A stretch of 61,045 nucleotides of DNA, the filler included, from Dugesia japonica (Eukaryota), in the NCBI GenBank assembly GCA_001938525.1. It is 6 parts of 6 records of this genome, joined end to end, with 100 filler letters (N's around TTAATTAATTAA, not from the genome) between each part and the next. Parts side by side here need not be neighbours in the genome. Positions count along the whole stretch, not along the records: positions 32,529 to 43,144 come from MQRL01614725.1; 5 more parts are not named here. One strand, written 5' to 3'. Each line of letters starts with the position of its first letter. The first letter of the stretch is position 1. This document shows, in pieces, positions 9,389 to 52,084 of this stretch. The notes beneath the pieces are model-generated. The model did no database searches. It was not told the origin of the DNA and saw only the letters and a list, made by a program, of their open reading frames with translations. Made by a program: the position numbers and the translations under genes.

Positions 9389-11516
9389 CCGTATTTTCAG
9401 GTATATAATACGCACTTCATAATAAATTAAAATTTTATTAAGGAAAAAAATATTGACATAATACGCAGATATAATTTATTTAAATTTGCGTAATTTATAA
9501 TTTAAAGTTACCTATTTTCTGGTATATAATAGGCGATTAATACTTAAATAGATATTTATTTTGATGTTTTAGATAAAAATCATAATGATTAAGGAAAACA
9601 GAAAATCTTATACAGCGAAACAAAAATGGAAATTTTAATATATGCAGAATCAAATGGAAATAGAAAAGCTAGTCGATATTATGAGGTAAACGAATCGAAC
9701 ATTAGATCCTGGAAGAAAATGCAAAATATTATAGAAAAACTTCCAAAAACAAAACGAGCTATTATAAATGGGAGCGTTAAGTTTCCGGAAATCGAAAGAT
9801 TATGTTTTAGAATTAAGTTAAAAAGGTATAAAAATTTCAACAATTGAATTATTAAGAAAGCAAAAATTATTGCTGAACAAGATGAAATTTATGATTTTGT
9901 TGGTCAGCCTTCGTGGGGTTTCAACTTTTTGAAAAGAAATAATTAATCAATTAGAACATCAACAAGCATTGGTCAAAAGTTACTAATTGATTTGGAGGCA
10001 AAAGTTGAAGCTTTTAGAAATTATGTAAAAAGTATTTGACATTGAAGATTTACATTTTGGTAATATGGATGAAATTTCAATTTCTTTTGATTTTCCGGCT
10101 TCTAAAACAGTAAATTCAAAAGGAGCAAAAGAAGTTACAATTACAACCATAGGCCATGAAAAAAGTAACTTTACAGTTATTTTGGGAGTCACAAAGGATG
10201 GTTCAAAATATTTAAACGAAAAACTTTACCAAAAGTTAATTTTCCAAATGGTATATATATATATATATATACAGTGTAACGATAAGGGATGGGTTAATCA
10301 AAATATTATGCAGTTTTGGTTGAATAATATTTGGAAAAAACGTAAAAATGCTTTNNNNNAATACTAAATCCTTACTCATGATGGACTCATGTCGTGCTCA
10401 TTTAACAGACGTAATTAAAAGGAAGTGAGTAAGTATTCATATTTAGCCATTAACCCTGGTGAACTTACAAAGAAGCTACAGCCTTTGGATTTGACAGTGA
10501 ATACAAAATTAGAGAACAATGGAATCAATGGATGATTAATGCAAATTTTGATTACACAAAAAGTGCATGGAGAATAAAAANNNNNNNNNNNNNNNNNNNN
10601 NNNNNNNNNNNNNNNNNNNNNNNNNNNNNNNNNNNNNNNNNNNNNNNNNNNNNNNNNNNNNNNNNNNNNNNNNNNNNNNNNNNNNNNNNNNNNNNNNNNN
10701 NNNNNNNNNNNNNNNNNNNNNNNNNNNNNNNNNNNNNNNNNNNNNNNNNNNNNNNNNNNNNNNNNNNNNNNNNNNNNNNNNNNNNNNNNNAATTTGATGG
10801 TTTTTAATTAATTTTATTTTTTAAACTGTTCTGTTCTTTTAGTTTTTTTAAATGTTAATATTCCATAATGAAAGTTATTTAACTAAACTAGGTAAATCCT
10901 TTAAAAATCCTTGTACTTTAAAGAAATTTTACAAAATTGNNNNNNNNNNNNNNNNNNNNNNNNNNNNNNNNNNNNNNNNNNNNNNNNNNAATTAGAGAAC
11001 AATGGAATCAATGGATGATTAATGCAAATTTTGATTACACAAAAAGTGCATGGAGAATAAAAAGAGCAAGTTATTCAGAAATTTCAAAGTGGATCCTTGA
11101 AAGCTGGAATAATGTGAAAACAGAATGTATAATCAATGGATTTAAAAAATCAATGGATGCAGATGTAGTAATGGATACTGAAACTACTAATCTTGACAAT
11201 GGATNTCTTAATGATAATTTACATCCAGAAGTACGTGTTGCCATTGAATCATTAGATATTAATGCTGATGAANAATTTGATGGTTTTTAATTAATTTTAT
11301 TTTTTAAACTGTTCTGTTCTTTTAGTTTTTTTAAATGTTAATATTCCATAATGAAAGTTATTTAACTAAACTAGGTAAATCCTTTAAAAATCCTTGTACT
11401 TTAAAGAAATTTTACAAAATTGTATAGTACGCACAAGTGTAAAATGCGCAGTTATAATTTTCTAAAAAAATATGTTTTGTACGTACAGTACGCGTATTTT
11501 ATACCTGAAAATACGG
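9389..11516 (+). mobile_element. pogo/Tigger-type DNA transposon
   Basis: 25-bp TIRs CCGTATTTTCAGGTATA(T/A)AATACGC; TA TSD at 9387-88 and 11517-18; transposase remnants inside. Confidence 0.92.
9585..11290 (+). pseudogene. pogo transposase (Brinker-like DBD, CENP-B HTH, DDE_1), frameshifted
   Basis: RKSYTAKQKMEIL..GNRKASR..NIRSWKK; GNMDEISISFD..TIGHEKSNFTVILGV; LLMMDSCRAH; LTKKLQPLDLTVN. Confidence 0.88.
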
Positions 11517-23179: not shown

Positions 23180-24523
23180 CTATTTGCCAGTCATATTAAA
23201 CATTTCGTAAACCAAATTAAACATTTTATCAACTATAACAGTATGGTTTTTTCTAATCCAACACACAAACTTTCAGTTAAGTTTGTCGAGTTTTAATAAG
23301 ATATGTGTAGATTTTAAAAATCACTGTTTGAATGTTTATGATCAAATTTTCCCGCGCTTTTTAAATGAGTTTATTTGGTCCTTATGGAATGATCAGATCA
23401 ATGAAACAGTAACAACGACACTAAAAATTATTAAAGAATATCTAATGGAAACCGATATAGGTTGATCAGGTTGGTTAAGAAAGAAGGTAAAACTATTGCA
23501 AAGGCTGCTGAAATATTGCAAATTAATCATAGCTTGGCTCGAGTTATAACCAGTAAATTAAAAGAAATTGATATGATTAATTTGCACAAAACTGATGGGA
23601 GCAGAAGAACAGTGCGAAATGACAGTGTTAAATTGCAGATCAAAGCAGCAGTATCTGCTAATCCAGAAATTACTCTCAAAGAAATTCAATTATATTTTAG
23701 ACACGTTTTTGGAGAGAACTACAATATTTCACATTCAACAATAAATTGGTGTCCTGCGGATCTTCAAATTACAATGAAGCAATCACACCGTGAGCTTGAT
23801 CGTCTAAACTCAGAAGATGAAACCCAGCAAAGGCGGGAATATGCTCTCTAGTTTAACACATATTTTCAAAATGACTTTTCAAATGCTATCTTTGAAGATA
23901 AGTCTTCATTCAATCGTCATTTAAAAAAAATCAAAATTGCGATCAAAAGTTGAAACGTGTGCTATTGTAACTATACCAATTGTAAGGGAAAGTCCGTTAC
24001 TTTACTTGTAAGCTTATAAATTAACAGTTTTGTCTATTGTAAAACAATTTCTAATTCAACAGTAAATGCTTCAGTTTTTCTCAGTACCTTTAACAAATTA
24101 TGTGTATATCTAAGAGATGAACTTCATATGAAAAATTCTTGTTTAATATTGGATAACGCACGCATTCATAGGAGAGATTATCTTGGAAAAATTTTATCCC
24201 AATTTAATTTTCAATTTAAATTTCTGTTGCCTTACTCATACATGCTCAATTATATTGAAAATGCGTTTTCAAAAATAAAGATGGGTATAAAATCAAAGCT
24301 AAGATTAGGAGCAATTGGCATACTTTCGGAGTTGATGTCGGAAGAGGCTAGGAATGTTACTTCAATCGATAGTGTTGGTTATTTAAGATATATTCTTTGC
24401 AACATAACTAAATGCACAGATGGTCTTTCTTAGGTCATCAATAAATAGTGCATTTTTATTTAAGTTAAGTTCATTAAGTCAATATATAATTTTTTTGTAA
24501 TTTTTAATATGACTGGCAAAAAA
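23180..24523 (+). mobile_element. IS630/Tc1-like DNA transposon with disrupted transposase
   Basis: TIR core TTTGCCAGTCATATTAAA at both ends, TA-flanked. HTH ORF at 23462-23851; catalytic LILDNARIH..LPYSYMLNYIENAFSKIK at 24128-24433. Confidence 0.88.
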
Positions 24524-28030: not shown

Positions 28031-29286
28031 TTAGGTTGATGGAATATAAATGCAGGTTTTTAATTATTTGTATTTTGCTCAAGTTTAGATCAATAAATTA
28101 ATAAGTTTAAATCAATAAGTTATTTATCATTTGTAATCTTATCTTATGCTCTTTCTAAATATTTATTTAAAATTTATAGTAATTTTGTTTTCTGTCTATA
28201 ATTTGGTTTTTATTCATATTTGTTGAAACGCGATTTCTACAATATTTTCTTCTATGAGTTGAAGCTAGGACGTAATGCCGCTCAAACCACTCAAAACATC
28301 CACGAAGATTTTGGGCGAGTCAAGTATCAAGAAATGTACGGTGCAACGTTGGTATCAGAAGTTTCGTTCTAACAATACCAGCCTCGATGATGAGCCTCAT
28401 GCCAGACATCCATCAGCCATTGATGATGAGAAATTGAAGCAGTTAATCAAAGCTGATTGTCGGAAAACTACATAAAAAGTTGCTGAAGAGGTCTGTACGT
28501 TTACCAATCAACCGTGGTTTGTCATTTAAAGGAAATTGAAAAAACAAAAAAGCTCGATAAGTGGATGACACACGCATTGACCAAACAGCACAAAATCGTC
28601 GTTTTGAAGTTGCATCTTCGCTCGTTTTGCTCAACAAAACCATCCTTTTCTGGAACAATTTATAACGTGCGAAAAAAAGTGGATTCTCTACGACAACTGG
28701 CGACGTTTGGCGCAGTGGTTGAACCGCGATCAACAACCACAACACTTTCCAAAGTCAGAATTTCACCAAAAAAGGGCTATGGGGATTGTTTGGTGGTCTG
28801 CAGCCAGTTTTATTCATCACAGCTTCCTGAATCCGAGCAAAATGATTACAGCCAAAAAATAATGTCAACAAATTGACGAACAGCACCAGAAACTTTAACA
28901 TATGTGTCCAGGATTGAACAATTTTTCTCCATGACAACGCTCTGCCGCACGTCACAGAAGTTGCACGAATTAGACTACGAGACTCTGCCTCATCCTCCAT
29001 ATTTTTCGGACATCTCGCCCCCTGATGTTCACTTTTTCAAGCATCTGGACAACTTTCTCCAAGAAAAAGGTTTCAAAAACCAAGACGATGCTAAAAACGT
29101 CTTTGCCAACGTCATCACCATCAGAACTTTAGATTTCTATACCGGTATAAATAAACTTGTTTCACGTTGGCAAAAATGCGTTGATTCTAGTGGTTTTTAT
29201 TTCGATTAATAAACTTGTTTATAAGCTGAGGTGTACTAATTTAAAGTTGAGATTTAAAAACCTGCATTTGTATTTCATCAACCCAA
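28031..29286 (+). mobile_element. mariner (DD34D) transposon, ~1.26 kb, frameshifted
   Basis: TIRs TTAGGTTGATGGAATATAAATGCAGGTTTTT / AAAAACCTGCATTTGTATTTCATCAACCCAA with TA TSD. Motifs TVQRWYQKFR..LDDEPHARHP, KKLDKW, HPPYFSDISPPDVHFF and RWQKCVDSSGFYFD. Confidence 0.95.
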
Positions 29287-30989: not shown

Positions 30990-31970
30990 CTTCTAATTCT
31001 AAGTTTCAATCTTCTTCAGCCATTCTAATCTTATGGATTTGAGTTTCCCTGCAAAGTTTATAAGCACTTGGTGTGGGCTTATGAATTTAATTATTTTACA
31101 TGAACCTTCATATCTTAAATAGTTTTTATTCAGATTGTGTGGATCCACCTTTACCAATACTTCTTTCCCTTCATTAAATTGTTTATATGTACGTCTGCCG
31201 AATTCATATTTGCTTAACTTTTTAGCCGCTTCATGCAAGTTTTCATCTGCTACTTCCTTCATTTCTTTATGATCTGAACTTTCTTGTTTTAGTAACCTAT
31301 GTAAAACTATCCTTCTTCCAAAGATAATTTCGAAAGGAGATAATCCAGATGATTTCTGTTGAGTCGCATTCATAGCAAATTTTATTCTTGGTAGTAATTT
31401 GTCCCAGCTTGCTTCCGAGCATCCATATTTTATCGTTGTTANNNNNNNNNNNNNNNNNNNNNNNNNNNNNNNNNNNNNNNNNNNNNNNNNNNNNNNNNNN
31501 NNTGGCGATGCGAACTCTTGTTTTATCTCAAATTTATCTGCAAGTGATTGCATTAATTTTCCTTCAAATATCTTTCTTCTATCAGTTAAAAATGACTTTG
31601 GTTTCCCAAAACAATATATACATTGCTCTTTTATTGCATCAACCACTGACGTTTTATCCTGTTTATTCAATTCTACAAAAGAAACTAACTAACTAAATCT
31701 GTCAACAAGGACGAAAACATATTCTTTCTTAGTTTGTGCTTCAGGAAAATGAGCAATATCCATGATAACTCGGTTCTTGGGACCAGACACTCTTTTGTTC
31801 TGCCAGTTTATGTCTTTATCATATTGCATATCATACATTTTTCTAATTTATGTTCTACAATATGTTTCATATTTGGCCAAATATAACTTACATTAAAATA
31901 TTCTGTCAGTTTTTGTCCTCCTACGTGACATAATTCCTCGTGAATGAAATCAATAAGTTCGGGTATCGAT
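30990..31970 (-). pseudogene. pol: Ty3/Gypsy integrase with following polypurine tract
   Basis: IHEELCHVG..YIWPNM..CMIC is the HHCC finger; FGKPKSFLTD..FAMNATQQKSSGLSPFEIIFGR is the core and downstream region. The purine run agaagagag follows the stop. Confidence 0.9.
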
Positions 31971-32428
31971 AGTAGATAGATATGAGCCAGGGCCCCTCGA
32001 GGGGGGGACCCCCACCCCCCGATTTTTTGCCCGCCTACTTTTTGGACTACGCCCCTTTTTGGACTCCGCACCCTTTTTATCTTTTGGACTCCGCCCCTTT
32101 TTATCTTTTTCTCCGCCCACTTTTTTGGACCCCCCTTTTTATCCTTTTCTCCACCCACTTTTTTGGCCACGCCCACTTTTTTATCTTTTTCTCCGCCCAC
32201 TTTTTTGGCCACGCCACTTTTTATCTTTTCTCCGCCCACTTTTTTTGGCCACGCCCACTTTTTTATCTTTTTCTCCGCCCACCTTTTTGGACACGCCCAC
32301 TTTTTTGGCCACGCCCACTTTTTTATCTTTTTCTCCGCCCACTTTTATTGGCCACGCCCACTTTTTTGGCCACGCCCACTTTTTGATGACTCATATTTTT
32401 TTCAAAAAATTTTCTATGTCAGAACAAA
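31971..32428 (+). mobile_element. probable Polinton terminal segment (AGTAGATA start, GC-box tandem repeats) inserted into the Gypsy integrase
   Basis: The integrase frame breaks abruptly at AGTAGATAGAT, followed by a hairpin cccctcgagggg and tandem ttttttggccacgcccac / tatcttttctccgcccac units. The family assignment is inferred from the AG terminus. Confidence 0.5.
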
Positions 32429-32528
32429 NNNNNNNNNNNNNNNNNNNNNNNNNNNNNNNNNNNNNNNNNNNNTTAATTAATTAANNNNNNNNNNNNNNNN
32501 NNNNNNNNNNNNNNNNNNNNNNNNNNNN

Positions 32529-33345
32529 TGCTGGTCGTATGATTTCGGACCTGATCTTATCGTTTCCTTGAAATTATCTATCCTATCCTTTAGATTACCC
32601 TCCTTTGGGGCTTGATCGATAGGTGCTATAGCTCGTTGTCCTTGGTATTCATTGAACATTGCTTCTTTTAGGTGAGGTAACTAACAGTCCTGGTGATCTA
32701 CTTTGTGTGTCAATGTTGATGTACCTGTATTACATGATCCATCTGCTGCTTTGCAGTATGACCTTCCTTTCATTGTTAGATCCTGGGCATCAAAAAATGC
32801 TTCATATTCTTTGAGTTCTACTGTATAAGTTTCGATTGCCACTGCATACGTCCATACCTTTCCTCGTATAGTGTATGTACCATATTCACAGTTACCTTTG
32901 TGTGAGGATATGCTTCCTGCTGCTTATATCGGTTGATCAATTACATGCTCTTTCTTGGCAATAACTTGAGTCCCATGTTTGATGGTAATTTTACCTGTCG
33001 TAAATCCTTCGTCCCATTGTTGTCCTGTTAGATGTACAGTCTGTCTCACTGTTCCTGGATCAATTATCGAAGTATAACTGTGATAACCACAATGAAATAT
33101 AAACGTCTTTACTGTTACTGTACATTCGCGTACTTGGACCTTATAATAATCGGACTCCTGGTACAAGTGGTAAATAGAATTATTATGGAGTGAGATTTTC
33201 TCCGGGTTTGCGTCTGGACATTCTTCTGTATCCACTAATGAGAATACTTCCTTCCCAACTTGCAATTCATCGCAATTGTATGCTAATAGGGCTTCACTTC
33301 TGCCCATCATTAAGAATAACAAGAGTATTGTAGTGGTTAACGCTT
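32529..33345 (-). pseudogene. env: envelope glycoprotein, chuvirus-G-like, N-terminal part with signal peptide; two in-frame stops; truncated by gap
   Basis: ALTTTILLLFLMMGRSEA|LLAYNC..FSLVDTEEC..LYQ..VQVRECTV..FHCGYHSYTS; past the stop it continues in frame as AAGSI..GNCEYGTY..W..AVAIE..YCKAADGSC. The cysteine and motif spacing match chuviral glycoproteins. Confidence 0.8.
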
Positions 33346-33449
33346 GCCATGAATTTCGGCGAGGCCCACGTGTCCAGCCATTCTCAATCTCATTTAACTG
33401 ATCCCGAACAATCCTAGTTGCATTTTCATGAGATGGCTGAGGCTTAGGG

Positions 33450-33850
33450 CATATGGCCTCAATAAACTTTTTCCATCCCCCATGCTGCTTTATCAACGGC
33501 ATTATCTTGTTCTGCATGAGCTCCACTATTGGTAGTTTACTGAGAATGAAGTTTTTTGACGGTTTGCTTCTAGCGATTGATAGGTGTTTTTGATTAATTA
33601 GATGCGCTATAGATACTACTATCCTTCCCTTTGTAGTCTGATCTTGTAATAACTCATCTATTACTCCTTCTAAATAGTCTCTTGTGCCATGACTAGTACC
33701 TTTAGTGGCGGGAAATTTCTTAATGGCTGCTTCTATTTCTTTTACCAGTGGTTTGAGACTATCAGATAGTTGAAATTTCCCAATCCATATCTTTAATTCT
33801 GGATAAAGCATTAGCAATAGTTGCGGTATTACTACTTCAGTTGGCATGTC
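33450..33850 (-). CDS. Bcl-2-like domain within the polyprotein ORF 32924-34801
   Basis: BH1-like YLEGVIDELLQDQTTKGRIVV, BH2-like NKIMPLIKQHGGWKKFIE, and an upstream amphipathic BH3-position helix LSDSLKPLVKEIE, in the correct order and spacing. Confidence 0.72.
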
Positions 33851-34569
33851 ATCATATATCTTTTTGATATCTTTTTGCGATATCGTTGCTAATCGCTTAG
33901 TTTGGTGAGTTATTGATGTTGTTAATCGTTTTTGTTTCAATGCTTCCTCCTCCCCCGGATTTCCTGGGTGTTTCGTTCTTGGTCTGCTTCTATTGCGAGG
34001 TTCAATAATAGTTTCTGCATCTACTCGGGTGCGCACTGGTTTTGGTGGCGCTTCTTCCTCTTCTGTTTCAATTGGATTTTCCATTTCTAGGGGGTGGTTT
34101 GTATCCATTAAATCATCCATTACCGAGGATGGCAATTCCTTTGCTATCCTACTTAATATTGGTGATAATGGTTGTTCCTCTAATACATCTTCCTCGTCTA
34201 GGTCTACCTTGCTAGGATCATATTTCTTGCTTCTAGTTGGCTCTTTGACTTTCATTTCCTCACTTTTTCTAGTTGGAGGTGAGTATCTTGTGATCTGCAA
34301 TTCATTCTCATCTTCTGTTAACTCGTCTGCTGATGGAGATCCGAATATTTCACGTTCCCAATCTTTGTTTGTTTTAGGAGTTTCCTTTGTTTCTCGAGAC
34401 GCTTCTGTACTTCCGGATTGATCTGTTGTAGGTCTTAATATTTGACTAGCCGCTAATTGTGTACGGAGTTTATATGCTTTTAACATACCTGAGGTCTCTC
34501 CCATTATTGATCTTGTTTTGTCTGCTGCCTTATAAGGGTCTGCGTCTTTTCGAGTGAGAGTACATCCTA

Positions 34570-35045
34570 ATTCTGGAAAAATCCACAACGTATTAGGTTT
34601 AACTAAATCTATTTTCATTAGTCCAATCGGGGTGGTATCTTCCACTATTCCATCTTCATCCAAGAGTTTGTGTGGTGGCTTAAATGGTAACTTGTCTCGT
34701 AGGTGCTTTACCATATTGTATACTGGTATCTTTATCGTGATTTTATCTCCCTCTGGATCAATTGTTCGGAATTTGACTTTTAATGGAGTGGTCTGTCCCA
34801 TCTCTGCTTTCTGGCAACCTCATTTGGTCTAGTTCTATTACTTGGTTATAATAGAGTACTATGTCGTCTTCCTGCAATAATGTTTGCATTCCGGTTTCCC
34901 CCTCGTCAAGGCTACGCTGTTGATTCATAAATTTTATAATCCTTTTCCGCAACTTAGCCCATGGTTCATTCATTTGGACCTGCCAACGAATTTCACTTTC
35001 ATCTGAAAATTTGATTATTACGGCCACGGCTTCATTAGTTATCAT
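34570..35045 (-). pseudogene. two tandem SUMO/ubiquitin-like domains (frameshift near 34820)
   Basis: VIIKFSDESEIRWQVQMNEPWAKLRKR..IVLYYNQ.IELDQ..CQKAEM is SUMO/Rad60-like. EGDKITIKIPVYNMVKHLRDKL..LLDEDGIVEDTTPI is Ub-like. Confidence 0.55.
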
Positions 35046-35055
35046 TCAAACTGCT

Positions 35056-38000
35056 TTAATTAATATTGCATCCATTACATCTCCTGGCATTCAGGACTAG
35101 TTGTATGGCTTTGTCATGTCTTAATAGTTCCAAGTTTTCTTCCAAGGTTAAGAGTATTTTCATTATTACTCTCGCCACACTTCCCCATGTTTTACTGTCT
35201 TCCCATAAGTCAATATTTATCTCCATTGTTCTATCGTCGACTTCTTCAAACAATTTCCCACTGTTAATTTCTTGTTCGTATAACCCCTCCAGTTGTTGTA
35301 GTACTTCTTTCATGGATTTTATCGGGCCTGGGGTGTAGTCTTCTGGTTTCTGTATTTGGAGAAATGTATTTTCACCTGGTCTTAATCCTATGTCCAGCAG
35401 ATGTTGTTTTCCTTCAAACTTTATGGGGAATCTCAGATGATCGCTTGTGATTATATAGCTTTTCTGCTGGTCGGCTATATCCAGGGTTTCTATAATTTTC
35501 TGCAATTCCCCAGCTGACGTACTGTTAAAATGTGGTATATGCATGACAGCCAATTCCGGTTTCTTCCTGGGTTTTTTGTTTGGTGTCAGATTTTCTATCG
35601 TGACCTGTAAATCCTCTCTCTTGGCACTTGTCTTCACTGCACCAATATACGGCTTGATCACTGACTCCCATTTGGCACGCTCTTCCTTTGTTATTTCAGT
35701 ATACTTTGCCAGATCCATTAGTAAATTTAATGCCCTCCAAAATGCTGCTCGAGGTATCCTTTCCTGGAAATAACAGAAATCAGAAATTATCTTCGATATC
35801 CGCTCTGTCTGAGGGTAACTGAAGGGGCCAACAAATTCTTGTTTAAATGGTAACAGTCGTGGTTGGACGATGTCCTCCGAGATTTCTTTCTCCTCCTCTT
35901 CTTCATCTGATATTGGGTCTGTGGCTTCATGGTTAATATCCCGAACCATGTTTATTTGGGCTTTGTTTTCTCCATATGTGTTTATGAGTCGCTCATTCTC
36001 TACTGGTAAAATTTCCTGAATATATAGGCTCATCATATTGAATATGAGTTGATCGGTATCCGGCATTTTTGGTATCGGAATGTCTATGGTCATTTTACGC
36101 GGTATTGGTTTGATTTCCGTGATCTCCCCTGGTTTGATATCATGTAGAAAGATTTGGTCCTCTTTCTCGGCTAGTATGATCATTGTTGCTCCTGCCTGCA
36201 TTTTATAGGACTTGAGCGATTTTGGCCATAACCATTTCTTGATCGATTTTATGATATGGTGGATAGTTAATCCTTCCAGAGTTATCATATCTACCTTTTT
36301 TATGCTTCCCTCTTTATTGAGGAGGCTGACTCTGATAGAATAGTTAGATATGGTGGATGTATTTTGTACTTCCTCTTCGTATAAAGTTTTCTCTTTCCAC
36401 CATTGTGCTCGAGCCCACAAGCTGAGCTGTCCATAGGTTGCCAAATCCCGTAGGTTATTCATCATTTTCCAATATACTTTGATATTTACTACCGGCCGAG
36501 TTTCTCGTGTTACTCTTAGTAGATCGTTGATAGCATGAAACGTGGCGGATTCTTCCGTTATTGGTTTCGTGTAGTTCATCCGAATATCACGTATTGTCGG
36601 TGTCCCTTCCGGAAATTCAACTGATTTTGTAGTAATTATTGGCAAGTTATCAATATTCTGTATTTTCCGATTTTCTTTTACTTGTTCCTTTATACCTGAC
36701 AATACCTCGGATACGTATAATTACGTTATTTCATCCATTCGTTCCTCAAGATCTGGTGATGGGTTGGTCCGTGGCTTCTCTTCTACATCTAACTCACATA
36801 TTTCTCCGGGCATGGCATTGGAATATGTGTTTGTCCTCGTCGTCGGTCTCAACTAATTTGCCATTTATGAACAGAGGTACCATGTTTAGCCCTTATTCTC
36901 GCCTCTTATCAGTAATGGCATCCATTAAATCCATCATGGTTATTCTTTGTGGTTTTAATCGGCTATATTTAGTCAGTTCCTGTTCATTTTTACCTAAATT
37001 CAAATATAATTTATAGTCCTGAATTTTGGAAGTTGCCAATATTTCTTCGGCATACTTTTTTCTAGTCATGAGCCATTGATTCTCAATTTCCTCCGGTATT
37101 TCCAGTCCATCATATATGTCGTAAATTCTATTCATTATCATCCAAAATGTCTCTCGGGGTAACTTCTTCTTCTCAATCTGTACTCGGTTAAACATTTCCT
37201 CCACCTTACGCATCGCTACTACCTTTCTTGCTGGCATTTGCCGCATCCTTATCATGTTGCATTTACCTTCTCTTCTCTCTAATCGTTGTTTGAGAAAATC
37301 TTTACGCGTCATCAATAACTGTTTCCTCTCCTCCTTTGTCAGCTTGTCTTTCCTCCCTAGTACTGTGGAAAGTATCTTTATTTTAATAGGTTCCACTTCC
37401 TGTTTATATAGATATTCCATTTCTCCCATGATTTCTAATGCCGATCTTCCGGTTTTCGTTATCCATATGTCATAGTTGATACCAGGGTGTTTGTCTAATA
37501 TTAAAATTTCAATTTCCTCTCCTGGTTTTACCCCAAAATCGTATAGATGTCTTTTTCTGGCATTAAAATCTACTATAGCACTTGGAGTACATACCTATTT
37601 ATCGGTTATACATGTATAGCCTGCTTGATTAAGCGCCGCTTCTAGATCTTTTACCATTAATTCGGTGAGTGTCAGTTTCATATTTCCTTCTGGGTTATAC
37701 AACCATAATTGGTAGTCTGATAATCCCATGTTGGATATTACCCAATCATAATGCACTGGTAACCATTCTGTCCAATCGCTTTCATAATCGGTGATCAGTT
37801 GTATAACTTCCAATAACTCAACCAATCGATTGGTAAACTTTAGGTATACATCTTTCTTTATCGTATCATGGAGTTTCTGGGCGGCTACCAGTATCTCATC
37901 AATTCGGACTAAGGATAGTCGTGATGCTTCATTTTGTTCCAATTCCGCATAGTCCATTAGTCTAACTTTCTCAAATCTTTTCCGTAGGTAGTTTTGAGCC

Positions 38001-38620
38001 TGGAGGGGAACTATTTCCTTTAAGAATGTTTCTTCGAGATTATGATATAACTCGTCCGTTTCTATTTCTTGAATTACTATTTGTGGTCGGAATACCAAAT
38101 ACCAATTTATCAATTTAATTATTGTAGTTTCATGAGGTCGTTCCCCGTAATAAATTAGATTCCTGTCATCTGAAAGAATATTGATTCCTATATTACCTCT
38201 TTGCAATCTGTGCCTATTCCACTTTCCATTCCATTGTTGCTGAACGTTAAACGGTGGTAATTCGAGAAACGGGTTTATAGTCATACCCTTGATACCATTT
38301 ACTTCCCTACATTTTATCTCGTTAATAGCCTCTTTCAAATGTCGTACCGTCATTCCTTTTAGTGGTAGCTTTAGTCGTTTTGGAATGACCTCCGGGTTGT
38401 TATGCCATACATATTGAATTTCGAATTCGTAATCTTCTAGCCTAGTTTCTTTATAAAGCTCGGCGATATAATCCGATATTGTTTTCTGCCAGTTAACTTT
38501 TACTTTTGCGTGTACCTGTGGGTGCTGGTATAATTGAAGTAACTGATTCATCACTCACCTTCTTCCGGTGGTTGTCGTTGATGTTTATATCGTTTTATAG
38601 ATGATTTCATTTGCTCACTC
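35056..38620 (-). pseudogene. tandem array of five diverged ~230-aa helical plus ubiquitin-like repeats (one polyprotein broken by a few stops/frameshifts)
   Basis: Recurring motifs: F/YWxxMNxL..W helix; TVRHLKEAI / MVKDLEAAL / TMMDLMDAI / TIHHIIKSI / SAGELQKII; NLIYYGERPHE / HLYDFGVKPGE / HIFQC.MPGE / QIFLHDIKPGE / HLLDIGLRPGE; then LYxQEI. ORFs 37595-38554 and 36893-37429 are in the same frame across a single TAG. Confidence 0.7.
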
Positions 38621-38829: not shown

Positions 38830-40240
38830 TGCACTTTGTGGTACACATTGTCAAAAGTACTTTGATGCACTAAATTGACTTGTCCCTTGTTTTGATTTAC
38901 TAGTTGTCTTAATCTCTCATTTTCCTGCATTAGATTATCCAGATTTGTATTCGGATTCCGATTATAATTTGTTTGGTTACGTTCTGACATTCTTTTGCCA
39001 TATGCCCTCTTCTGTTACACTTGTAACAGACCGTTGGATTTTTCAAAAAACACGTTTCTATGTTGTGGTTGGTTCTCTTGCAATAAGTAAAAAATCGGTT
39101 GTTGTTATTATTATTGCCTCTACTTCTACAATCTCGCGCAATATGCCCCTTTCTTTCACAGGAATTGCATTGCATATCTCGATTATTTTGCCAGTTATTC
39201 CGAGGTGCATTAAATCCTCCACCATTTCCTCTGGGATAGTTAGGTCTATCATTCCGGTTATTCCGTTCCTGCCCTGGGGTCAGGGTTTTCATCATTGATT
39301 GCGTATTGGGTATGAAATCTGATATCCGTGTAGTTTCCTCTGTCTGTCCTTCTACTTTGAATATTCGTTCTGACGGTCTATCTGCTACAATTCGCAATGT
39401 TGCCAGAGCGTCTTGTAGAGTCACTGGCTTACTCAATTTTACCATTAGTTTGGTGTTCTCGTCACATAATCCGTTCAAAAAGATGGCGAGTACTTGACTG
39501 TCTTCCAGCTTGTCTCCTAAGGCTAATTTCCCACGCCTTTTGAGTTCCATCATATACGCTTGTGGAGTTTCTCCTCTTTGTTGTTTTCGATTGGTAAATT
39601 GTTTGAAATCCTGGCCAGTCAATTTTAAATTTTGGAAATTATCGGTTAGTATTTTCACAACCTCTTCCCATTTGTCGGGAATGGCTTCCATGCCCTTAGT
39701 GTGATCCCAGAACACCGTTTTGGCTACTCCGGTCAAGTAAGCTGGCAATCGCTTCCTTTTTGCTTCCTCGTCCCATCCACAGGTTTTGGCATACATTTCG
39801 TAATTTTGGATAAGTTCATCCAACTTTTCTGGTATTCCGCTAAAATATTCGCCATCGAATTTTATTTTCCACTCCGGTTGATGGTTTTCGGTTTTGGTTG
39901 TCATGTTGTTGTCCTTTGCTGTGTTGGTTTCTATTTTCGGGTTTTCAGTTATAGCTGGGGTGGTTTTGTTTNNNNNNNNNNNNNNNNNNNNNNNNNNNNN
40001 NNNGGTGCTTCCTTGGTTACTACCTATTATCTCTGTCTCTTCTGAGGTATAACTTAGTTCGCTTAGTCGGTTTTTATCCGTAGGTGGATTATTATGGGTT
40101 CGCTTCTGGATTATTTGATTTTCTTTGTCACTTGGGCTACTATTTGAACTGATGGCTTCTAATGTTTTGGTTTTGGATAGCGAAGTTGATTTGTCGAATT
40201 CTGATTTCTTGAACGAACAAATATTCTCTTCCTGGTCCAA
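38830..40240 (-). CDS. gag: retrotransposon Gag (capsid and zinc knuckles), frameshift near the 3' end
   Basis: FSG..LDELIQNYE..GWDEEAK..LPAYLTGVA..W; RKQQRGETPQAY; CNSCERKGHIARDC and CYKCNRRGHMAKEC, plus a degenerate middle knuckle. It continues in frame 38709-38990, and decayed coding sequence extends upstream to ~40450. Confidence 0.93.
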
Positions 40241-41007
40241 ATAAAATGACGATTTCTTGAATTTCCTTGATTACCTTTGTCGGTTAAGTTGGGCTTCTTT
40301 TAGAGTTGAGCTTGGGGTAGATATTCCGGATGTAATAGACCTTGCAAGTGGTTTTCTATTTTCCGAGTCGGAATCTATTTTGTCAGAGTTCAGCTTGTTG
40401 AGTGCTTACTGTATTTCGGTTTTGGTTTTGTAATACTTGTAGTTTAACTTTCTAGAATAAAATTTACTTTTAATTGTCTTTATTTAGGAGACAATCACTC
40501 CTCTTCTTGATTTTAAACTTTCTTTAATATCATGCTGCTCTACGCTTGTCATCATAGCCCCATAATCATCTTCCTTAAATTTTTTCCTTTTTTTCCTTAA
40601 TTAAGTCTTCCTTCAATCTTCCTGTAATGCTTCCTTTATTTCTTCCTAATTAACGCCAGGTTATCTCTTCCTAAATGTGGGAGTACCCATTTTTCTGTAG
40701 TATCGGCGAACTCTTCTGGCTTTCTTTCTTTTCTTCCTTTTAATATGCCGGGGTAACAGTGCACACTTTTCCTAAATTTATGGGGGAGTACCGAGATTTT
40801 TCTGAGGGATCGGCGGCCCCGTTTGGAGTACCCTTTTCGTGCAGGCGAACGCTTNNNNNNNNNNNNNNNNNNNNNNNNNNNNNNNNNNNNNNNNNNNNNN
40901 NNNNGGGATCGGCGGCCCCGTTTGGAGTACCCTTTTCGTGCAGGCGAACGCTTCCGGCTTCTCTTCCTTTAATGCTTCTTCTAATCAAGCTTCCTTTAGT
41001 GTGCTTA

Positions 41008-41285
41008 ACTACGTGGCCTTCCTTTAACATACTGGTTAATGTACTTAGGACTACACGTATCTTCCTTCCTTGCGTAGACTTCCTTTAAATTCTTCCGAGG
41101 TTTTCCCTCCCATACGCAGGCTTCCTTAATTATGCTTCCTTATTTTCCTACGTGGTCTCCCGTTAATATACTGGTTAATGTACTTAGGGCTTCGCGAAGT
41201 CGTCCTTTAATTTGCTTCCTTCCTACGTGGTATCCCGTTCACATACTGGTTAATGTACTTAGGGCTTCGCGTAGCCTTCTTTTAA
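41008..41285. repeat. three ~65-bp tandem-like repeats in the element leader
   Basis: ctacgtgg..atactggttaatgtacttagg at ~41010, 41150 and 41223; on the minus strand these read (E/V)(A/V)LSTLTS.L..(D/G/Y)HV. Confidence 0.7.
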
Positions 41286-41931
41286 TATATGCGCATCACA
41301 TATCTGGTAATACCCAATTACTTCTTCAGTTATAGTCATTAGACAACTGTTGCGGTTGCTTTCTACAAAGGTGATCAATCTTCTGATTGCAACTTACCAG
41401 TTGGGGATCGCTATTTTCCATAACTGTGTCTGTAATAAATATGACTGGATATTCTTCCTATAATCTTCCTGAAGTTTTTTTCAAGATTAGCTTCCTTAAA
41501 TTTCTTCCTGATTAACATCCTTAAATTTATCTTCCTTTATTTTCCTTTAATTTATTTTCCTTTAATTTATCTTCCTTTACTGTGCTCCTGGTTACGTTTC
41601 CATGGTGACTTCCGTGGATATCTCGACATGATCTCTGAAAATATAAAATTACAAGTTTTATTGATTTTACTTCCTGATTTTACCTGTTTTGTTATTATTC
41701 TTATTCCTTTTTATTTACTAACTCCTTATAATCGTCTTAATTTCATATCATCCTTAACTTCCTATTTTCATAATCTGCTATTTTCATAAGTGATTACATA
41801 ATTTTATAATTTCGATATTTTATTTATTTTCATCATTTATTTAATCATTTTACTAATAATATTACACATAATAATAATCTTTATGCTCTTATTTCCCTAT
41901 TCTTACGGGGTTTTATTTCCTGAAAATTTTA

Positions 41932-41954
41932 TTCAAATCCCGGCTGAGCCCCCA
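41932..41954 (-). promoter_or_regulatory. primer-binding site, tRNA-Pro
   Basis: Minus strand TGGGGGCTCAGCCGGGATTTGAA is complementary to a tRNA-Pro 3' end (..TTCAAATCCCGGNNGAGCCCCCA) and lies 7 nt from the LTR end. Confidence 0.88.
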
Positions 41955-41961
41955 AAATTCT

Positions 41962-43368
41962 TGTTGGGGTCCCACCTGAGTTGGATGAAGAAAAGTGTGG
42001 CTGGAGAAAAACAGCCCTCAGGGGAACCCTTTCAAGAATTTGACCTAACGCCCCTAGGTTAAGTATTCAGCATATGGCGGTTGACCTCTCTCTTAATGGG
42101 AGGTGCGCGCCCATAGGCCTTTGAATTTGGGTTCACNNNNNNNNNNNNNNNNNNNNNNNNNNNNNNNNNNNNNNNNNNNNNNNNNNCCTTTGAATTTGGG
42201 TTCACTCTTTTCCCTGTTCCCACGGCTTCATCAAAGATTAGAACGAATTGAACAATAAAACTTTATTTTAAATGAAAATTAGATAAGATCCAAAGCGCCT
42301 GGATCTAACCACTGGGCTATATCGGTCGTCAAAATGTTGAACGCCGCCGAATCATCATTGTCGTCCTATTGGACCCCTGTAGGGTTTCCTAGTTGGCGGG
42401 AAAGGTCGGATATATATTGTTTGAGGAAATCGATTTTCCTCTGCAATAGCATTTTATTTTCATTTTCTAACGCTTTTGTCTACACCGCCAAGTCCTTCTG
42501 CTTTTTCACAATCTGATCACGTTTTTTGATCAGACGATCTTGCTGGTCTGAATGCTTAATCAATGCTCTATCCGCTTTCTGCTTTAAGTGGCGCTCTAAG
42601 AGTAGACGGCGCATTATGCNNNNNNNNNNNNNNNNNNNNNNNNNNNNNNNNNNNNNNNNNNNNNNNNNNTAGTTGGCGGGATAGGTCAAATATATATTGT
42701 CCTCTGCAACAGCATTTTATTTTCATTTTCTAACGTCTTTGTCAGCACCGCCAAGTCATTCTGCTTTTTCACAATCTGATCAAGTTTTTTGATCAGACAA
42801 TCTCGCAGGTCTAAATGCTTAATCAATGCTCTATCTGCTTTCTGCTTTACGTGGCGCTCTAAGAGTAGACAGCGCATTATGCGATGGCACCTTCGCAGAC
42901 TGTTTGGAAAATTAATGCGTGTCACTAAAAGAAGATATATCATTAAATTATTTCTGTAAAACAGACAAAAGATAATCAAGTGAATAATTCAGAAGGAAGA
43001 ATGTAGGTATAAAAAACGTTTATTTGTAAATTTACAAGTATCAAGGACGCGAGGTCTGGCTACCCTTGTTGACCATTAATGGTTCGAGGGGCATAGCAGC
43101 TTTTAATCGATGGACGTCCTGTACCAATTGGTTTTCGCGGTCTTNNNNNNNNNNNNNNNNNNNNNNNNNNNNNNNNNNNNNNNNNNNNTTAATTAATTAA
43201 NNNNNNNNNNNNNNNNNNNNNNNNNNNNNNNNNNNNNNNNNNNNCCAGATTTAAATTCATCGCGGAGTTTTACCAGGTCAATTACCCTAGACTTAATTTT
43301 ATATAAAGTTCGACCCCCTAGATTTAAATCATACCAGAATTCAACCCACCTAAGGTAAAACCCCAACA
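41962..43368 (-). repeat. 5' LTR of the giant element (true length unknown; spans a scaffold linker)
   Basis: On the minus strand it starts TGTTGGGGT at 43368 and ends ACCCCAACA at 41962. It contains ORF C (42279-42924) and the tail of ORF B (43041-43144). Confidence 0.8.
42279..42924 (-). pseudogene. LTR-encoded ORF/exon C in the 5' LTR (partly duplicated across a gap)
   Basis: After cttttAG: TRINFPNSLRRCHRIMR.LLLERH.KQKADRALIKH..WLDPGALDLI*. Confidence 0.75.
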
Positions 43369-45832: not shown

Positions 45833-48515
45833 CTAAATTAAAGATTTAAATTTATTACTTTATTATAAATGATGATTATGATATGGATTTAAAGATCATT
45901 TTGATTGAAAGCTCATATATTATTAAAATTTAGATCGACAAAATATTTAATCATTTAATTAAAATCTAGGTACACGAATTAAGTGAAGCCGAAACCATAT
46001 TGACTGTTTAAAACCTTTTACACAGCTGTTTCTGTCAAGTCAGTACCAGTCTTTAATGGAATGTGAATTTACTGGAGAGCCGTCTCTATATTTCCCGATA
46101 ATCTTTCAATTTTCTTGATGAATTGTATTCTTTCGAATAAATCTAATTAGACTATTTTACTTGCGATCTCTTAGCCGTAATCTAGAAGATGAACCATTCG
46201 TTACAATCGTACCAGTGGCAGCTTTGCTTGTTTCATTAACATTGTTCCAAATTTATTTGTTACAGATAATTTACGTAATTTGTTAATCATAAAGAAAAGA
46301 ATTTACTAAGCCTTGCAACACTGAGATTGTACCGACCAGTTCGTCTTTATCTACTATGTTCTATTTAAATAAACATTGATTTATCACAATACTGAAATAA
46401 ATTAAGAGCAATTATATTAATTGACGAAATTGAATATGGTTTCATTAATCACGATGAAACATTAGATATTTTTAAATAAAGTCCTCAGAGAGAATTATGA
46501 TAAAGGCAATCGCATATTAACTATAATTTAATATCATCATTATAAATCCTGAATAAATCAAATATAAAAATTTAGAAATAATATAACATTCGATTAAAAA
46601 TACGATCATACCAACAATAATATAATTATAAATAAAATTTACTATTTTCAAGGAATTTTTTATACACATGTCAAAATCAGCATTAGAAAATTTATAGGAA
46701 ATGTCCACCACCACCTAAAATTACGTTGCATCATTTTATTAGTGTCAATTTTTATTCATTTCATCTTTATATTTATCCCGAGAATCGATATCATACCAGA
46801 TCTAACCATATTTCATTATGGTTCACCTCTCGGTAGTCAATATCAATATCAGTTTATAGAGTCTAATACTTTCTACATTTATTCATCGTATTTCGTGATT
46901 CTATTCGTCAGTATATTTAAAATTTAGGTTTAAACACTCTTTTATCACACCTATCAATTCATTCCCTCAATCTCCATTTATTCTCAGATTATCGTTATCT
47001 ATTCATAGTTCATGTTGTCGAAAAATGAATCAATTGGGCAATTATCAGCTTCATACTATCTTAACTGACATTTGCATCAAGTGAAAGTGGGGAATGATCT
47101 CGTTTTTAACTTTAAACTTACTCTGAGTTTGAACGGCTCTAGGCATTCCACGCCACACCCGAATCACGATTTATCCCGATCGTCCGATGATCAGTTCTCT
47201 CGGCAGCGTCGGTGACTCTTCCCAGGGAGTGCAGGCGCCTACCGATTTCATTTAGGGTCGTTTTACGGTAGGGCGATAGAAGCTCTAGATTGACAAAAAA
47301 TGTCATGCACACCCACGCTGGAACTCACTTACAATTCAACAAGGTAGATAAATTATAGCATTTTATTTAAGCATTAAACATCAACCATCGTTTATTAAAT
47401 GTCATTCATTTTGGATCTTGCTCTTAATTGAAGATGACGTTTGCTTTGATTTTCTTTTACACGCTTTCATTCGGGAAGAATATGATTGTATATGATTTAT
47501 TCGTTTGAGAATGCTATTTCATCAATACAATAAACTGCGGAATTCTGGTGGCGATCTAGCTTTGTTCATTGCTATCTACTATTTCCTTTAGATTTTTTCA
47601 TCTAGGGTTGTGGTCCTCATAACGAGCGTTGGACATCGCAATGTTCCTTCTGGATCCTCATACCCTGCATTGGTCGTCATAGTTAGTACTTGGAAATCCA
47701 CTCCCATCATTGTGTCGCAATCTCCACTCGCATCATTCCGTTGACTAACACTTACCATTTGAGCTATCATCTTTATCGTTCAGAGGACTTTATTTTTGTC
47801 ATAGGAGAGCAGTCATTCGCAGTATTCGGTAAGATTCACCTTTTTTGTTTTAGAACCATCCGGTTTCGAGTAATACTTTTATTCTTCGCAAGCAGCTTTA
47901 TTTTTATCAGTCGCGATCAGTTTTATCATTAACTTCTTTATTAGGAGCATATTTATCATTGGCATCTTTATTACATGCATCATTATCATTAGAAAATTCA
48001 TTTGGAATTGTCATTCTTGCATATCGTTCAGGAAAAAATCGTTCATTTAGTTTTCAATTCTTCATTTCGATCTTTAGTTATAATTCAGAGACCCTCAGTT
48101 GTCGAAGTGCGAGATCCATGAAGCAAAACTAAACGTAAATTTTAAAGAAAAATTAATCTTACCGAAATACAAGATGGCCGAAAAAATGGCTGAGTGGATT
48201 GGTTTTTTTTCTTGTAGAAATTAAAGCAACAAAAATAAACTGATAATTTTAATTGCCAGGGCTTATATTTGTNNNNNNNNNNNNNNNNNNNNNNNNNNNN
48301 NNNNNNNNNNNNNNNNNNNNNNNNNNNNNNNNNNNNNNNNNNNNNNNNNNNNNNNNNNNNNNNNNNNNNNNNNNNNNNNNNNNNNNNNNNNNNNNNNNNN
48401 NNNNNNNNNNNNNNNNNNNNTAAACCTTTAATTTCGGGTTCTATATTTTCCCTATTATTATCCAAGAAAATAAACTACAACTCTGATTAAAAATTTTTAT
48501 TAAAAGTAAACATAT

Positions 48516-48898
48516 TTAAAGCAGATCCAAGGCTCCTGGATCAAGCCACTGGTCAGGGGACGTTATTTCAAAATTGAATGCAGCGATGTCCTCATCGTTG
48601 TCCCACTGCATGGTGTTGGGGTTGCCAATCTGCCTCGATAAGTCCGCAATATATTGTTTTAGGAATTCTATTTTTCGCTGTAGTAATTGTTTATTCTCTG
48701 CTTCCAATGCCTTTGTCTGGATGGCAAGGTCATTTTGCTTTTATACTATAGCGTCCAATCTTTTAATTAGCTTATCTCGTTGGTCTAAATGTCGTAAGAG
48801 GGCCTGGTTGGTTTTTCGTTTCAGGTGCCTCTCTATCAGCAGACGGCGCAGTAGGTGGTGGCATCTACGAAGATTGTTTGAGAAATGGATACGAGTCA
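48516..48898 (-). pseudogene. LTR-encoded ORF/exon C, one in-frame stop
   Basis: After ttgttttAG: TRIHFSNNLRRCHHLLRRLLIERHLKRK..(TAA at 48741)..LLQRKIEFLKQYIADLSRQIGNP..WLDPGALDLL. Confidence 0.8.
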
Positions 48899-49038
48899 CT
48901 AAAACAAATTATCATTAATTTTAGTAAAATTTCCTCAATGGAAAAGAACATAAATCTGATGAAAATAACAAAAAACAAGAAATCCACGAGACAGTTCAAA
49001 CGAGAAAATTTATTAACACAAAAGAGGTGGCCTCCAAA

Positions 49039-49397
49039 TTAATTCTTAGGGGTTTGGGTGCTTTTCTCAACCATTAAAGGTTCTAGTGGCATGGACGCCT
49101 TCAGCTTCAGAACATCACCTACCAGTTTATTTTCTCGGTCTTGGTAGGACCGGATCATCTCAACCAAGGACTCTACCTGCCCCTTCCACACTCTCTCTTG
49201 TGCATGGGAGGCCTCGACTTCCTTTCGGAAAGCCACACATTTTTTTCGGTATCGGCTTACTTTACTATTGGCGTTGGCTGTATCCGCATCCCACTTACGC
49301 TTGGCGAGACGATACAGGTCCCACGTCATCTCGCGGTCCTCGCTGTCATCACGCATTTTTTTCGTCGGAGCCGAACTTCGATTTAACGATGAGTGCA
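49039..49397 (-). CDS. LTR-encoded ORF/exon B, intact, coiled-coil-like
   Basis: A 119-aa open frame that starts at an AG|TG junction rather than an ATG; homologous to 17938-18341; AATAAA downstream. Confidence 0.8.
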
Positions 49398-49622
49398 CTA
49401 GTAGTTACATATCAATACGAGCAAGAATCAGAAATTTATGCATCCAGATCAAAATATATATGTATAACTTTTCTTTTAAGTTAGTTTAGTGAAATATCTA
49501 AATTTGGGTCTGCTTTATAAAAGAAGAGCTGTAAATATTAGTTGAAGATTCGCATTACAATAATAACAACAAGCATATATTCTAATTTGAAAAATTATAG
49601 TATACATGGGTAATTTAATAAG

Positions 49623-50027
49623 TCAAGGAGTGGGGTCTGTGTTTTCTAAAGCGCCACCACTGGCCTGATTTCGCAGTTCCCATAGAGTATTACCAAGATC
49701 TAATGAAAATCTAGTACCTCGAGGAAGGTGGGCAATCGACACAGGTAACAAAGACGGCCCATTTTGCCATTGATTAAATGTCTGATTTGTTACTGGATCA
49801 AAAAGGGGGGTTCGGTGCATAACTTCTTGGGTGCGATCGGGACCGACCCATTCAAAGAAAGCTTGGCGCTCTGCAGCCGCCCATTCTCTTTCGTTATCCC
49901 CATCTTCCTGGGTTAAGTTGGAATAATCCGCCAGGATACCCGCATTTCGGTCATGTGGGTTTTTGTATCGTTTAAAAATGGTACGCCCTGTGCGACGATC
50001 CCATAGTAGCTCCCATTTATGTTCCAT
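49623..50027 (-). CDS. LTR-encoded ORF A, intact, 134 aa, unknown function
   Basis: ATG-initiated ORF preceded by an acceptor-like taatgtAG; conserved at protein level with 17347-17770. Confidence 0.78.
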   Translation of the reverse strand: MEHKWELLWDRRTGRTIFKRYKNPHDRNAGILADYSNLTQEDGDNEREWAAAERQAFFEWVGPDRTQEVMHRTPLFDPVTNQTFNQWQNGPSLLPVSIAHLPRGTRFSLDLGNTLWELRNQASGGALENTDPTP

Positions 50028-52084
50028 ATTTGTTTGTTTATTTCCTACATTAATAGTTAATAAAATTTCTTTTATTTAATTAGGTTGAAGTACATTTAGG
50101 TAATTAAATAGTGATATTTTAGAAAACGTAAATTATGATAAAACACGGGTTTTCATTTATAAACGAAGCATAGCATCACTATTAGTCTAACCAATCTCTA
50201 CTAAAAGAAATTCATCATAAATTCAGATACAGTGGTTATTCTTCAGCGATCTCCACAATAGATTCTAGGGGGAACATCTCAACGAAACACTGAAGGTCTG
50301 TCTCGTCGGGATGTTCCACCCGGCCTTTGGTTNNNNNNNNNNNNNNNNNNNNNNNNNNNNNNNNNNNNNNNNNNNNNNNNNNCGGATTGGCGTTGTTTTC
50401 TTATTTTTCGTAAAGTATCACGCAATACTGCTGGCATTATCTAAGGAAACAAAAAAATATAACAATAACATCGTTAAAACCATCTTGCTATTCGTTTACC
50501 CGATAATTTAATGTTATTGTACTATAAATACGAGGTTGAGACGCTTCCTTACACTCAAAGATAAATTGTTAAATAAAATCCTATTTTAGAATCCCTTTTG
50601 GTGTAGCACCACCTGGTTCTTTAAAATATCATGATTGAACTAATGGACGCCTCTATTACTCAGATACTGAATCATTAACGAGTTATGGACCACATAGGGT
50701 TGAGATTAATCATAACAGTATTTGAATAACTATGCTGGTAAATAGAGAATTAATTCAATGATCGGTGGAATTCCTCTACAGACTTATTTATTTCAGTCCT
50801 TGTCAGTTACAAAATCTACTTTTACTGATGACAAAAATCCAAGGGTGACTTCAATGACATAAATCTTACTGCGGTTCATAATACATAAAACTACGGCTAG
50901 CCCTTTCTAAACAAAAATAAAACAAAGGTGGTCCTACTGACCAAGGTTTTTATTTTCTAAATTACTTTATTTCATAAAAAATTTTAGTGCAGGAATCCTA
51001 GTTTTTGTCAACACAAGATAATAATTGATTCAAATCAATGTGGGTTTAAATTGATATTATTTGATAATACCGAGGCCAGTAAAACTACTCCACACTCTTA
51101 TTAATATTACTGTCCGTAATTATCGCAAAGGTAACCACAATAGAGACAATAACACTCCTCATAATCATACCGCTAAGGCCGGTATTAGCTGATAAGTCTA
51201 ACACCGACAACAACGATACTCATGATGATGAGATCAATTACCCGACTATGGTTATACTTGGACCAACTAACAGCTCGATATAAGTACTGACAACAGGATA
51301 TTAAGATAAATTGGAATTTCTTATTATAATAATAATATAGCAATAAAATATTATGGAAGGAAAATCAGGCCTTGGTTAAAAAATTTGTTTTTTATATTTC
51401 TGCTCAAACCGGATGCTTGGCAATTTAGTTACTCTTCTCTTCTCGTTTGCAGATACACACTGACGAGTTAGGTGGATTGCACAACTGTAGCCATGCATAC
51501 TCCGCTGGTGGTATGCAAACCATCGATTGATAAATTCGATAACAGATTTATGTAAATCCTTATGTGGACTATACAATAATATAGACATGCAGCAGAACAT
51601 GAAATAGTTTCATATTAGACAAGGAAAGTCTAATGCAATTCTCAATCTGGTGTAAACACGGGAATTCACAGAAAAATATAGTGAATTGATGATCGGCTGC
51701 CTATGGAAAATAATTGAATGATCGAACCCAATCCTTTCACAAGCCAAGCGCATCCACTATTACCGATCTTATCATTTCTCAGCANNNNNNNNNNNNNNNN
51801 NNNNNNNNNNNNNNNNNNNNNNNNNNNNTTAATTAATTAANNNNNNNNNNNNNNNNNNNNNNNNNNNNNNNNNNNNNNNNNNNNAAAAAATGAAATCATT
51901 TAAAAATAAAATATTTTCTTAAATACTTAAGAAATATAAATGATGTAATAATATATAATAACATCACCTTTTTTATCAAGAAAAATGAATTATAAATAAA
52001 TATTTTTGTAATCAGAAGTTTATTCTTTAAATGAATTTAAAATTTACAATGTAAGTTACTTATACACAAGGTTTGAAGTATCGA

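Follow-up and report, generated by a model that had tools for sequence, protein, structure and literature searches.

Does a planarian LTR retroelement carry a domain derived from Bcl-2 directly before its envelope protein, and if so, what might the element use it for? The window, i.e. the whole stretch of DNA analysed here (61,045 nucleotides, filler included, from Dugesia japonica, assembly GCA_001938525.1), holds such a candidate on its minus strand. On balance, we favour the reading that it belongs to a decayed gag-env-type LTR element, whose likely Bcl-2-derived domain would be tethered to the ER by the signal peptide of Env and would modulate the host, probably by counteracting cell death. 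Published systems are compared on the basis of those portions of the cited papers that were consulted.

The element and its family

The retroelement context of the domain, proposed in an earlier note on this DNA, was confirmed: gag with zinc knuckles lies upstream and a fusion glycoprotein of the family PF24664 follows in frame downstream. Read along the minus strand, the element consists of a PBS-like site, gag, repeats of helices with a ubiquitin-like (Ubl) module, a linker, the Bcl-2-like domain, a signal peptide and the fusion glycoprotein. The putative PBS of about 23 nt (41932-41954), presumably tRNA-Pro-like, starts with TGG, and the putative 5' LTR ends at about 41962. A leader of 1.6 kb separates this site from gag (38930-40270), which was identified by matches to Retrotrans_gag (E 0.0085) and zf-CCHC (E 3.1e-8) and in which, by eye, two CCHC zinc knuckles are intact and a third is degenerate. 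The leader also holds short direct repeats before gag (40630-41300), namely a 49-nt family, D20, and a 67-nt family, D12.

The next 3.5 kb (35056-38554) contain about five diverged repeats, each composed of a helical hairpin and a ubiquitin-like module, split over three broken frames (37595-38554, 36893-37594 and 35056-36720). In a BLAST comparison of six proteins the repeats matched each other with pairwise E values of 4e-6 to 0.02. The best matches of a repeat profile were the SNRNP25-type proteins 1v2y and 8r7n_B, which we take to have a ubiquitin-like fold, at E values of only 0.018 and 0.029, and no ubiquitin-like family of Pfam matched the repeats. The helical hairpin of each repeat has a conserved Trp, and the frame 34758-35045 together with the start of the frame that follows appears beta-grasp-like by eye.

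That following frame (32924-34819) encodes 631 aa from stop to stop, with the first Met at 34801. It carries an acidic low-complexity linker rich in Pro, Ser and Thr, assigned from its sequence (33887-34450), and then the Bcl-2-like helical domain (33434-33886, aa 312-462), in which the stretch matching Pfam PF00452 spans 33473-33736. As the earlier note had described, two BH-like peptides lie 35 aa apart in this frame: the BH1-like motif YLEGVIDELLQDQTTKGRIVV (33614-33676, aa 382-402) and the BH2-like motif KIMPLIKQHGGWKKFIE (33458-33508, aa 438-454). A hydrophobic segment then follows at aa 494-505, within the predicted internal signal peptide of env (33290-33361). The N-terminal part of env (32684-33289) is a fusion glycoprotein of the Monjiviricetes/HSV-gB type. 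It matches PF24664, the Monjiviricetes fusion glycoprotein, in frame over aa 494-622 from profile position 5 (E 2.5e-19), and the match continues in the next 80 codons past an in-frame stop at 32924-32926 (E 1.7e-7); the frame is lost after 32681.

An assembly gap (32429-32528) truncates the element. No pol was found between gag and env, as would be expected of a Burro-type element (see below), and since the copy ends at the gap, the protease, dUTPase, reverse transcriptase, RNase H as well as integrase (PR-dUTPase-RT-RH-IN) are not visible.

The element belongs to a large multicopy family. In four runs, 12,102, 15,435, 11,641 and 2,762 contigs matched it, covering 30 of 30 bins each time, although such contig depth does not equal copy number. 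Pieces of family contigs about 82% alike to the window copy span the Bcl-2-like domain, and other copies are without part or all of it, as seen from junction contigs, one per run in three runs, that join across 33634-33895 and 32632-34369. Among the 40 best-supported differences between the window copy and family contigs (1,611 more exist), 16 fall into the 631-aa frame and are split over the codon positions as 6/6/4, as for neutral decay of the window copy; none lies in BH1 or BH2. Broken as it is, the window copy probably does not yield a Bcl-2-like protein of this kind. Expression of this copy was not seen in the RNA runs X10 and X15: the family was matched by 18 reads of X10 and by 5 of X15, none of them 95% or more alike to the window copy. 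The X10 reads represent a distant subfamily, in which 15 of 21 differences within the 631-aa frame, and 6 of 10 inside the domain, fall on third positions. This bias between subfamilies may be a small sign of purifying selection.

Resemblance of the domain to Bcl-2

The single sequence resembles Bcl-2 only faintly. The whole ORF matched PF00452 with 13.1 bits (E 0.15) and the domain alone with 16.9 bits (E 0.0096), so that the HMM search named by the earlier note did return Bcl-2, although far below the gathering cut-off of 31.4 bits. Taken alone, this match is not beyond chance, since neighbouring ORFs drew unrelated Pfam families at E values of 0.0014 to 0.035. The domain is not a member of PF00452, either by score or by its NWGR position. 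In a phmmer search of the PDB, 45 of the 46 sequences matched by the domain belonged to the Bcl-2 family, but with E values of 0.5 or worse, and the top match was an unrelated protein.

The picture changes once a second lineage is included. When the domain was searched with phmmer against 1.84 billion representatives, one protein was found at E <0.001, namely P0001, a protein of 248 aa that is 27% identical to residues 29-164 of the query (E 9.4e-6). The matched residues exclude the signal peptide, and P0001 was found without any Bcl-2 input. The alignment of the two domains alone scores 143, a value reached by none of 2000 shuffles (best shuffle 65). P0001 shows the same order as the window element, in which the Bcl-2-like domain is followed by a hydrophobic segment or signal peptide and a fusion glycoprotein. 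On its own it also matches PF00452 (16.5 bits, E 0.012, likewise below the cut-off), so that each of the two sequences picks the same family out of 24,736 Pfam families. All 54 matches of P0001 in the PDB were Bcl-xL constructs (E 0.056-1.2).

A profile built from both sequences matched Bcl-2 proteins of the PDB with E values between 3.5e-4 and 3.7e-3, led by the Bcl-2 homolog 5ua4 of ASFV (E 3.5e-4), which we take to be A179L, and Bcl-xL (E 5.8e-4). Among the best 60 of 101 matches, 59 belonged to the Bcl-2 family, highly redundant and mostly Bcl-xL constructs, and the sole other one had an E value of 0.13. With P0001 included, the resemblance is thus beyond chance. The best profile matches, Bcl-xL and viral Bcl-2 proteins (ASFV A179L, 5ua4/6tzc; gammaherpesvirus v-Bcl-2), have BH1/BH2-like segments in register with those of the element. 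In contrast to these proteins, the domain is only about 17-21% identical to them, has an eroded NWGR and gives no BH3 or BH4 match.

Bcl-2 proteins fold as eight helices bundled around a central hydrophobic one, and the earlier note had made its proposal depend on prediction of a helical bundle. AF2, run on the two sequences, predicted eight helices with a mean pLDDT of 59.6 (about 70-75 within the BH1 and BH2 blocks) and a pTM of 0.58. In a Foldseek search of the PDB with this model, all of the best 44 matches were Bcl-2 family members, with a best E value of only 0.028 and TM scores of at most 0.44; this result is not independent because Foldseek scores sequence as well. In a viral library, a herpesvirus v-bcl2 ranked first (E 0.35), and 7 of 50 matches were named Bcl-2 homologs or BALF1. 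A geometry-only structure search with the weak model did not resolve the fold, and features and structure from the ESM Atlas gave no Bcl-2 cluster. The helical model and the Bcl-2 matches are thus suggestive of a Bcl-2 fold, which the low pLDDT and TM values leave unconfirmed.

Could an amphipathic helical domain have matched Bcl-2 by chance? The sub-threshold scores of the single sequence, comparable to the chance matches of the neighbouring ORFs, would fit such an explanation, as would the weak AF2 model and the missing cluster in the ESM Atlas. We nevertheless regard it as very improbable, given that two sequences only 27% alike select the same Pfam family and that the profile reaches E 3.5e-4 for Bcl-2 as against 0.13 for the next family. 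The match is moreover colinear over BH1, BH2 and the tail (see below), and a BCL2-like motif has been noted independently in print (PMC6431247). We therefore hold the domain to be, with high probability, homologous to Bcl-2; the description of it as Bcl-2-like stands, and derivation from Bcl-2 is its most likely origin.

Possible function of the domain and the signal peptide of Env

The consensus NWGR of BH1 is absent from both sequences, being TKGR in the window and NRDK(VMV) in P0001, which has thus lost the Gly and the Arg. In BH2 (consensus W-x5-GGW-x2-F), the window copy, with IMPLIKQHGGWKKF, has GGW-x2-F without the first Trp, as the earlier note had reported along with TKGR. The counterpart in P0001, LEPWMKSHQGWKGL, has both Trp residues, and GGW is replaced by QGW. 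The two lineages thus keep complementary parts of BH1 and BH2. The earlier note had made its proposal depend on conservation of GRIV and GGW in other family members; in P0001 the former gives way to NRDKVMV and the latter to QGW, which counts in part against it.

Because NWGR is eroded differently in each lineage, binding of BH3 is uncertain. BH3 helices form their hallmark salt bridge with the Arg of NWGR, and in CNP058, Bcl-b and Boo, which carry substitutions at NWGR, BH3 is bound less well or not at all (PMC5691656, in the portion consulted). Judged from these residues, the window lineage may be able to capture BH3 in the canonical manner, which is doubtful in the case of P0001. Vaccinia virus provides precedents for both outcomes: F1L binds Bak without obvious BH motifs (PMC2836074), and A52, B14 and A49 keep the fold for other jobs, poxvirus Bcl-2-fold proteins being known that inhibit NF-kB and not apoptosis (PMC2494871, PMC4358236).

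Along the lines of A52, B14 and A49, the domain could have kept the Bcl-2 fold and given up BH3 binding, acting as an adaptor against innate signalling, autophagy or ER calcium and stress responses. The groove motif varies between the lineages (TKGR and NRDK) while scaffold residues are held, the poxvirus NF-kB inhibitors show that such a change of role occurs, and a location at the ER next to Ubl repeats would suit interference with signalling or ubiquitin. We rate this alternative as rather unlikely, since F1L binds Bak even without obvious BH motifs, the window copy retains the Gly-Arg pair with the Arg of the BH3 salt bridge (PMC5691656), and Burro elements also carry BIR domains (PMC6431247). 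The target of the domain is the least certain part of the reading that we favour: binding of pro-death Bcl-2 family members falls slightly short of an even chance in our estimate, a role as a non-BH3 adaptor is somewhat less probable than that, and a vestigial or assembly-only role is unlikely.

The membrane attachment of the domain may depend on Env. The internal signal peptide has a basic n-region and an h-region of about 12 residues, which is short, as is typical of signal peptides, and unlike a stable anchor. Cleavage is predicted after RSEA in the window and after RSEG in P0001, at sites that we place by the -3/-1 rule. Downstream of the cut, the window reads LLAYNC and P0001 ILAYDC, so that RSE[AG]-x-LAY-x-C is common to both lineages. 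The distance from the start of the h-region to the predicted cut is similar (17 residues in the window, 18 in P0001), the BH2 Trp and the h-region are 45 aa apart in the window vs 30 aa in P0001, and the best 19-residue Kyte-Doolittle means are 1.48 and 2.01, respectively.

The earlier note had suggested that this signal peptide, about 35 aa downstream, could double as the C-terminal anchor of Bcl-2, and its position agrees with that idea. In a phmmer alignment with full-length Bcl-xL (4qnq_A, E 0.061), aa 77-181 of P0001 align with aa 130-234 with two single-residue gaps; BH1, BH2 and tail are colinear, and the h-region falls on the hydrophobic tail of Bcl-xL. From this alignment, the signal peptide of env sits at the tail-anchor position of Bcl-2, where Bcl-xL likewise has its hydrophobic C-terminal segment. 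The support for a dual use is positional. In the literature searched, which did not extend to Grohme et al. 2018, we found no env signal peptide at this position. A difference from Bcl-xL and viral Bcl-2 is that the domain would be made within a polyprotein and would obtain its anchor from a cleaved ER signal peptide. The topology of signal peptides leaves an upstream domain in the cytosol and tethered to the ER. A signal peptide therefore implies insertion into the ER rather than the mitochondrial targeting that is usual for Bcl-2 tails.

On the reading that we favour, intact elements would make all parts as a single polyprotein in which pol comes after env, as has been described for Burro (PMC6431247). 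The internal signal would insert with its N-terminus in the cytosol and its C-terminus in the lumen, and signal peptidase would cut after RSEA, leaving a short C-terminal anchor in the same orientation as the tail anchor of Bcl-2. After cleavage the domain would remain attached to the membrane of the ER, and not go to mitochondria by default, until the protease of the element or signal peptide peptidase perhaps frees it, as for HCV core (PMC5712332). At the ER it would likely act like a viral Bcl-2 as a host-modulating, probably anti-death, protein. Should death suppression prove true, a retrotransposon would be using a strategy of large DNA viruses, in a host that relies on cell death to turn over its tissues, and one hydrophobic segment would serve two proteins. 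More tentatively, and with less likelihood than the reading as a whole, a host Bcl-2 gene may have been captured entire, its tail anchor becoming Env's signal peptide; a single cut by signal peptidase would then yield both Env and a membrane-bound Bcl-2 mimic that helps cells expressing the transposon to survive. An LTR retroelement would in that case have a functional Bcl-2 of viral type, made by a route that we did not find in the literature searched.

The capsids of Flaviviridae offer another view of the same arrangement. In HCV core and flavivirus capsid proteins, a cytosolic domain is held at the membrane by the internal signal sequence belonging to the envelope protein that follows until, for HCV core, signal peptide peptidase releases it (PMC5712332); the likeness is one of analogy only, with no homology. 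The domain could thus be a vestigial or structural spacer, and an uncleaved signal peptide would tie the Gag precursor to the membrane of Env. Gag does lie upstream in the same polyprotein of Burro (PMC6431247), and the BH motifs are eroded. A mere spacer is improbable, however, as the position of the domain is kept in lineages that are only 27% identical, changes inside it are biased towards third positions (6/10) and it occurs in several Burro families (PMC6431247). The two roles are not exclusive, and a spacer could coexist with a Bcl-2-like function.

Relation to Burro elements and the rest of the window

According to the earlier note, a Bcl-2-like protein was not to be expected in a retroelement. 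This was not supported, since a BCL2-like motif immediately before a mononegavirus-like env is published for Burro (PMC6431247). The Burro/GYPSM1 elements of planarians are giant LTR retrotransposons of the Gypsy-like type (Jurka 2007; Grohme et al. 2018, via Arkhipova and Yushenova 2019, PMC6431247), 25-30 kb long. Their one giant ORF starts with retrotrans_gag together with two or three CCHC knuckles; a Ubi2/SUMO-like motif comes next, then a BCL2-like motif, an env that matches mononegavirus fusion glycoproteins, and finally pol (PR, dUTPase, RT, RH, IN). The BCL2-like motif is present in several Burro families, BIR domains also occur, and interference with host apoptosis and ubiquitination has been suggested (PMC6431247). 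The domain is therefore very probably real but not new.

The window element shares with Burro an N-terminal Retrotrans_gag with CCHC knuckles, putative ubiquitin-like modules and a BCL2-like motif that is followed at once, and in frame, by a mononegavirus-like env, all in one orientation. It also shares the high copy number, and decayed copies with stops and frameshifts have been described for Burro, too (PMC6431247). It differs in having about five repeats of helices with Ubl modules, as opposed to the one Ubi2/SUMO-like motif named in the portion of PMC6431247 consulted, and no MATH, BIR or ankyrin match was obtained in the part of the element present in the window. The element is thus likely of the planarian Burro/GAG-ENV-POL errantivirus kind, likened to Burro1-4 by its published layout and not by sequence; the AT-rich background of the window also fits a planarian host.

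A GAG-ENV-POL order with a gB-type env has also been described in Platyhelminthes (Chary and Hayashi, PMC13524379), and a gB-type env after gag is likewise found here. Among the six Smed elements of that study, Smed_errantivirus_5 and _6 are nearest to the env stretch of the window by eye, without obvious gaps, and a run of 13 identical residues is common to the window and Smed_errantivirus_5. No PBS is listed for these six elements in the portion consulted, in contrast to the PBS-like site of the window element, and the terms 'BCL', 'Burro' and 'ubiquitin' have no occurrence in the main text as available (PMC13524379). The BCL2-like domain of Burro was flagged as worth testing in 2019 (PMC6431247). 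To this, our analysis makes a modest addition: quantitative support that the motif truly derives from Bcl-2 and has been retained by two distant lineages, a BH3-binding motif eroded differently in each lineage, and a signal peptide of env in register with the Bcl-2 tail anchor.

Further repeats and transposon remnants surround the element. A repeat family, D5, is present at 42433-42619, 42696-42882 and 48670-48856 (in the regions 42400-43000 and 48500-50100). Small minus-strand ORFs without a Pfam match lie near it (42686-42988, 49039-49404 and 49623-50075) and could represent small genes located within a long LTR. Beyond the assembly gap, a Gypsy-type integrase fragment lies on the minus strand at 30999-31990 (Integrase_H2C2 E 2e-8, rve E 2e-4), adjoined by a GC-rich satellite (32000-32420); it probably belongs to another element. 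Scaffold gaps are padded with the spacer TTAATTAATTAA. Other transposon fragments, at 5205-5513, 9593-10352, 24020-24430 and 28487-29209, comprise an LTR element's RNase H, a pogo-like and a Tc1-like DDE, and a mariner transposase.
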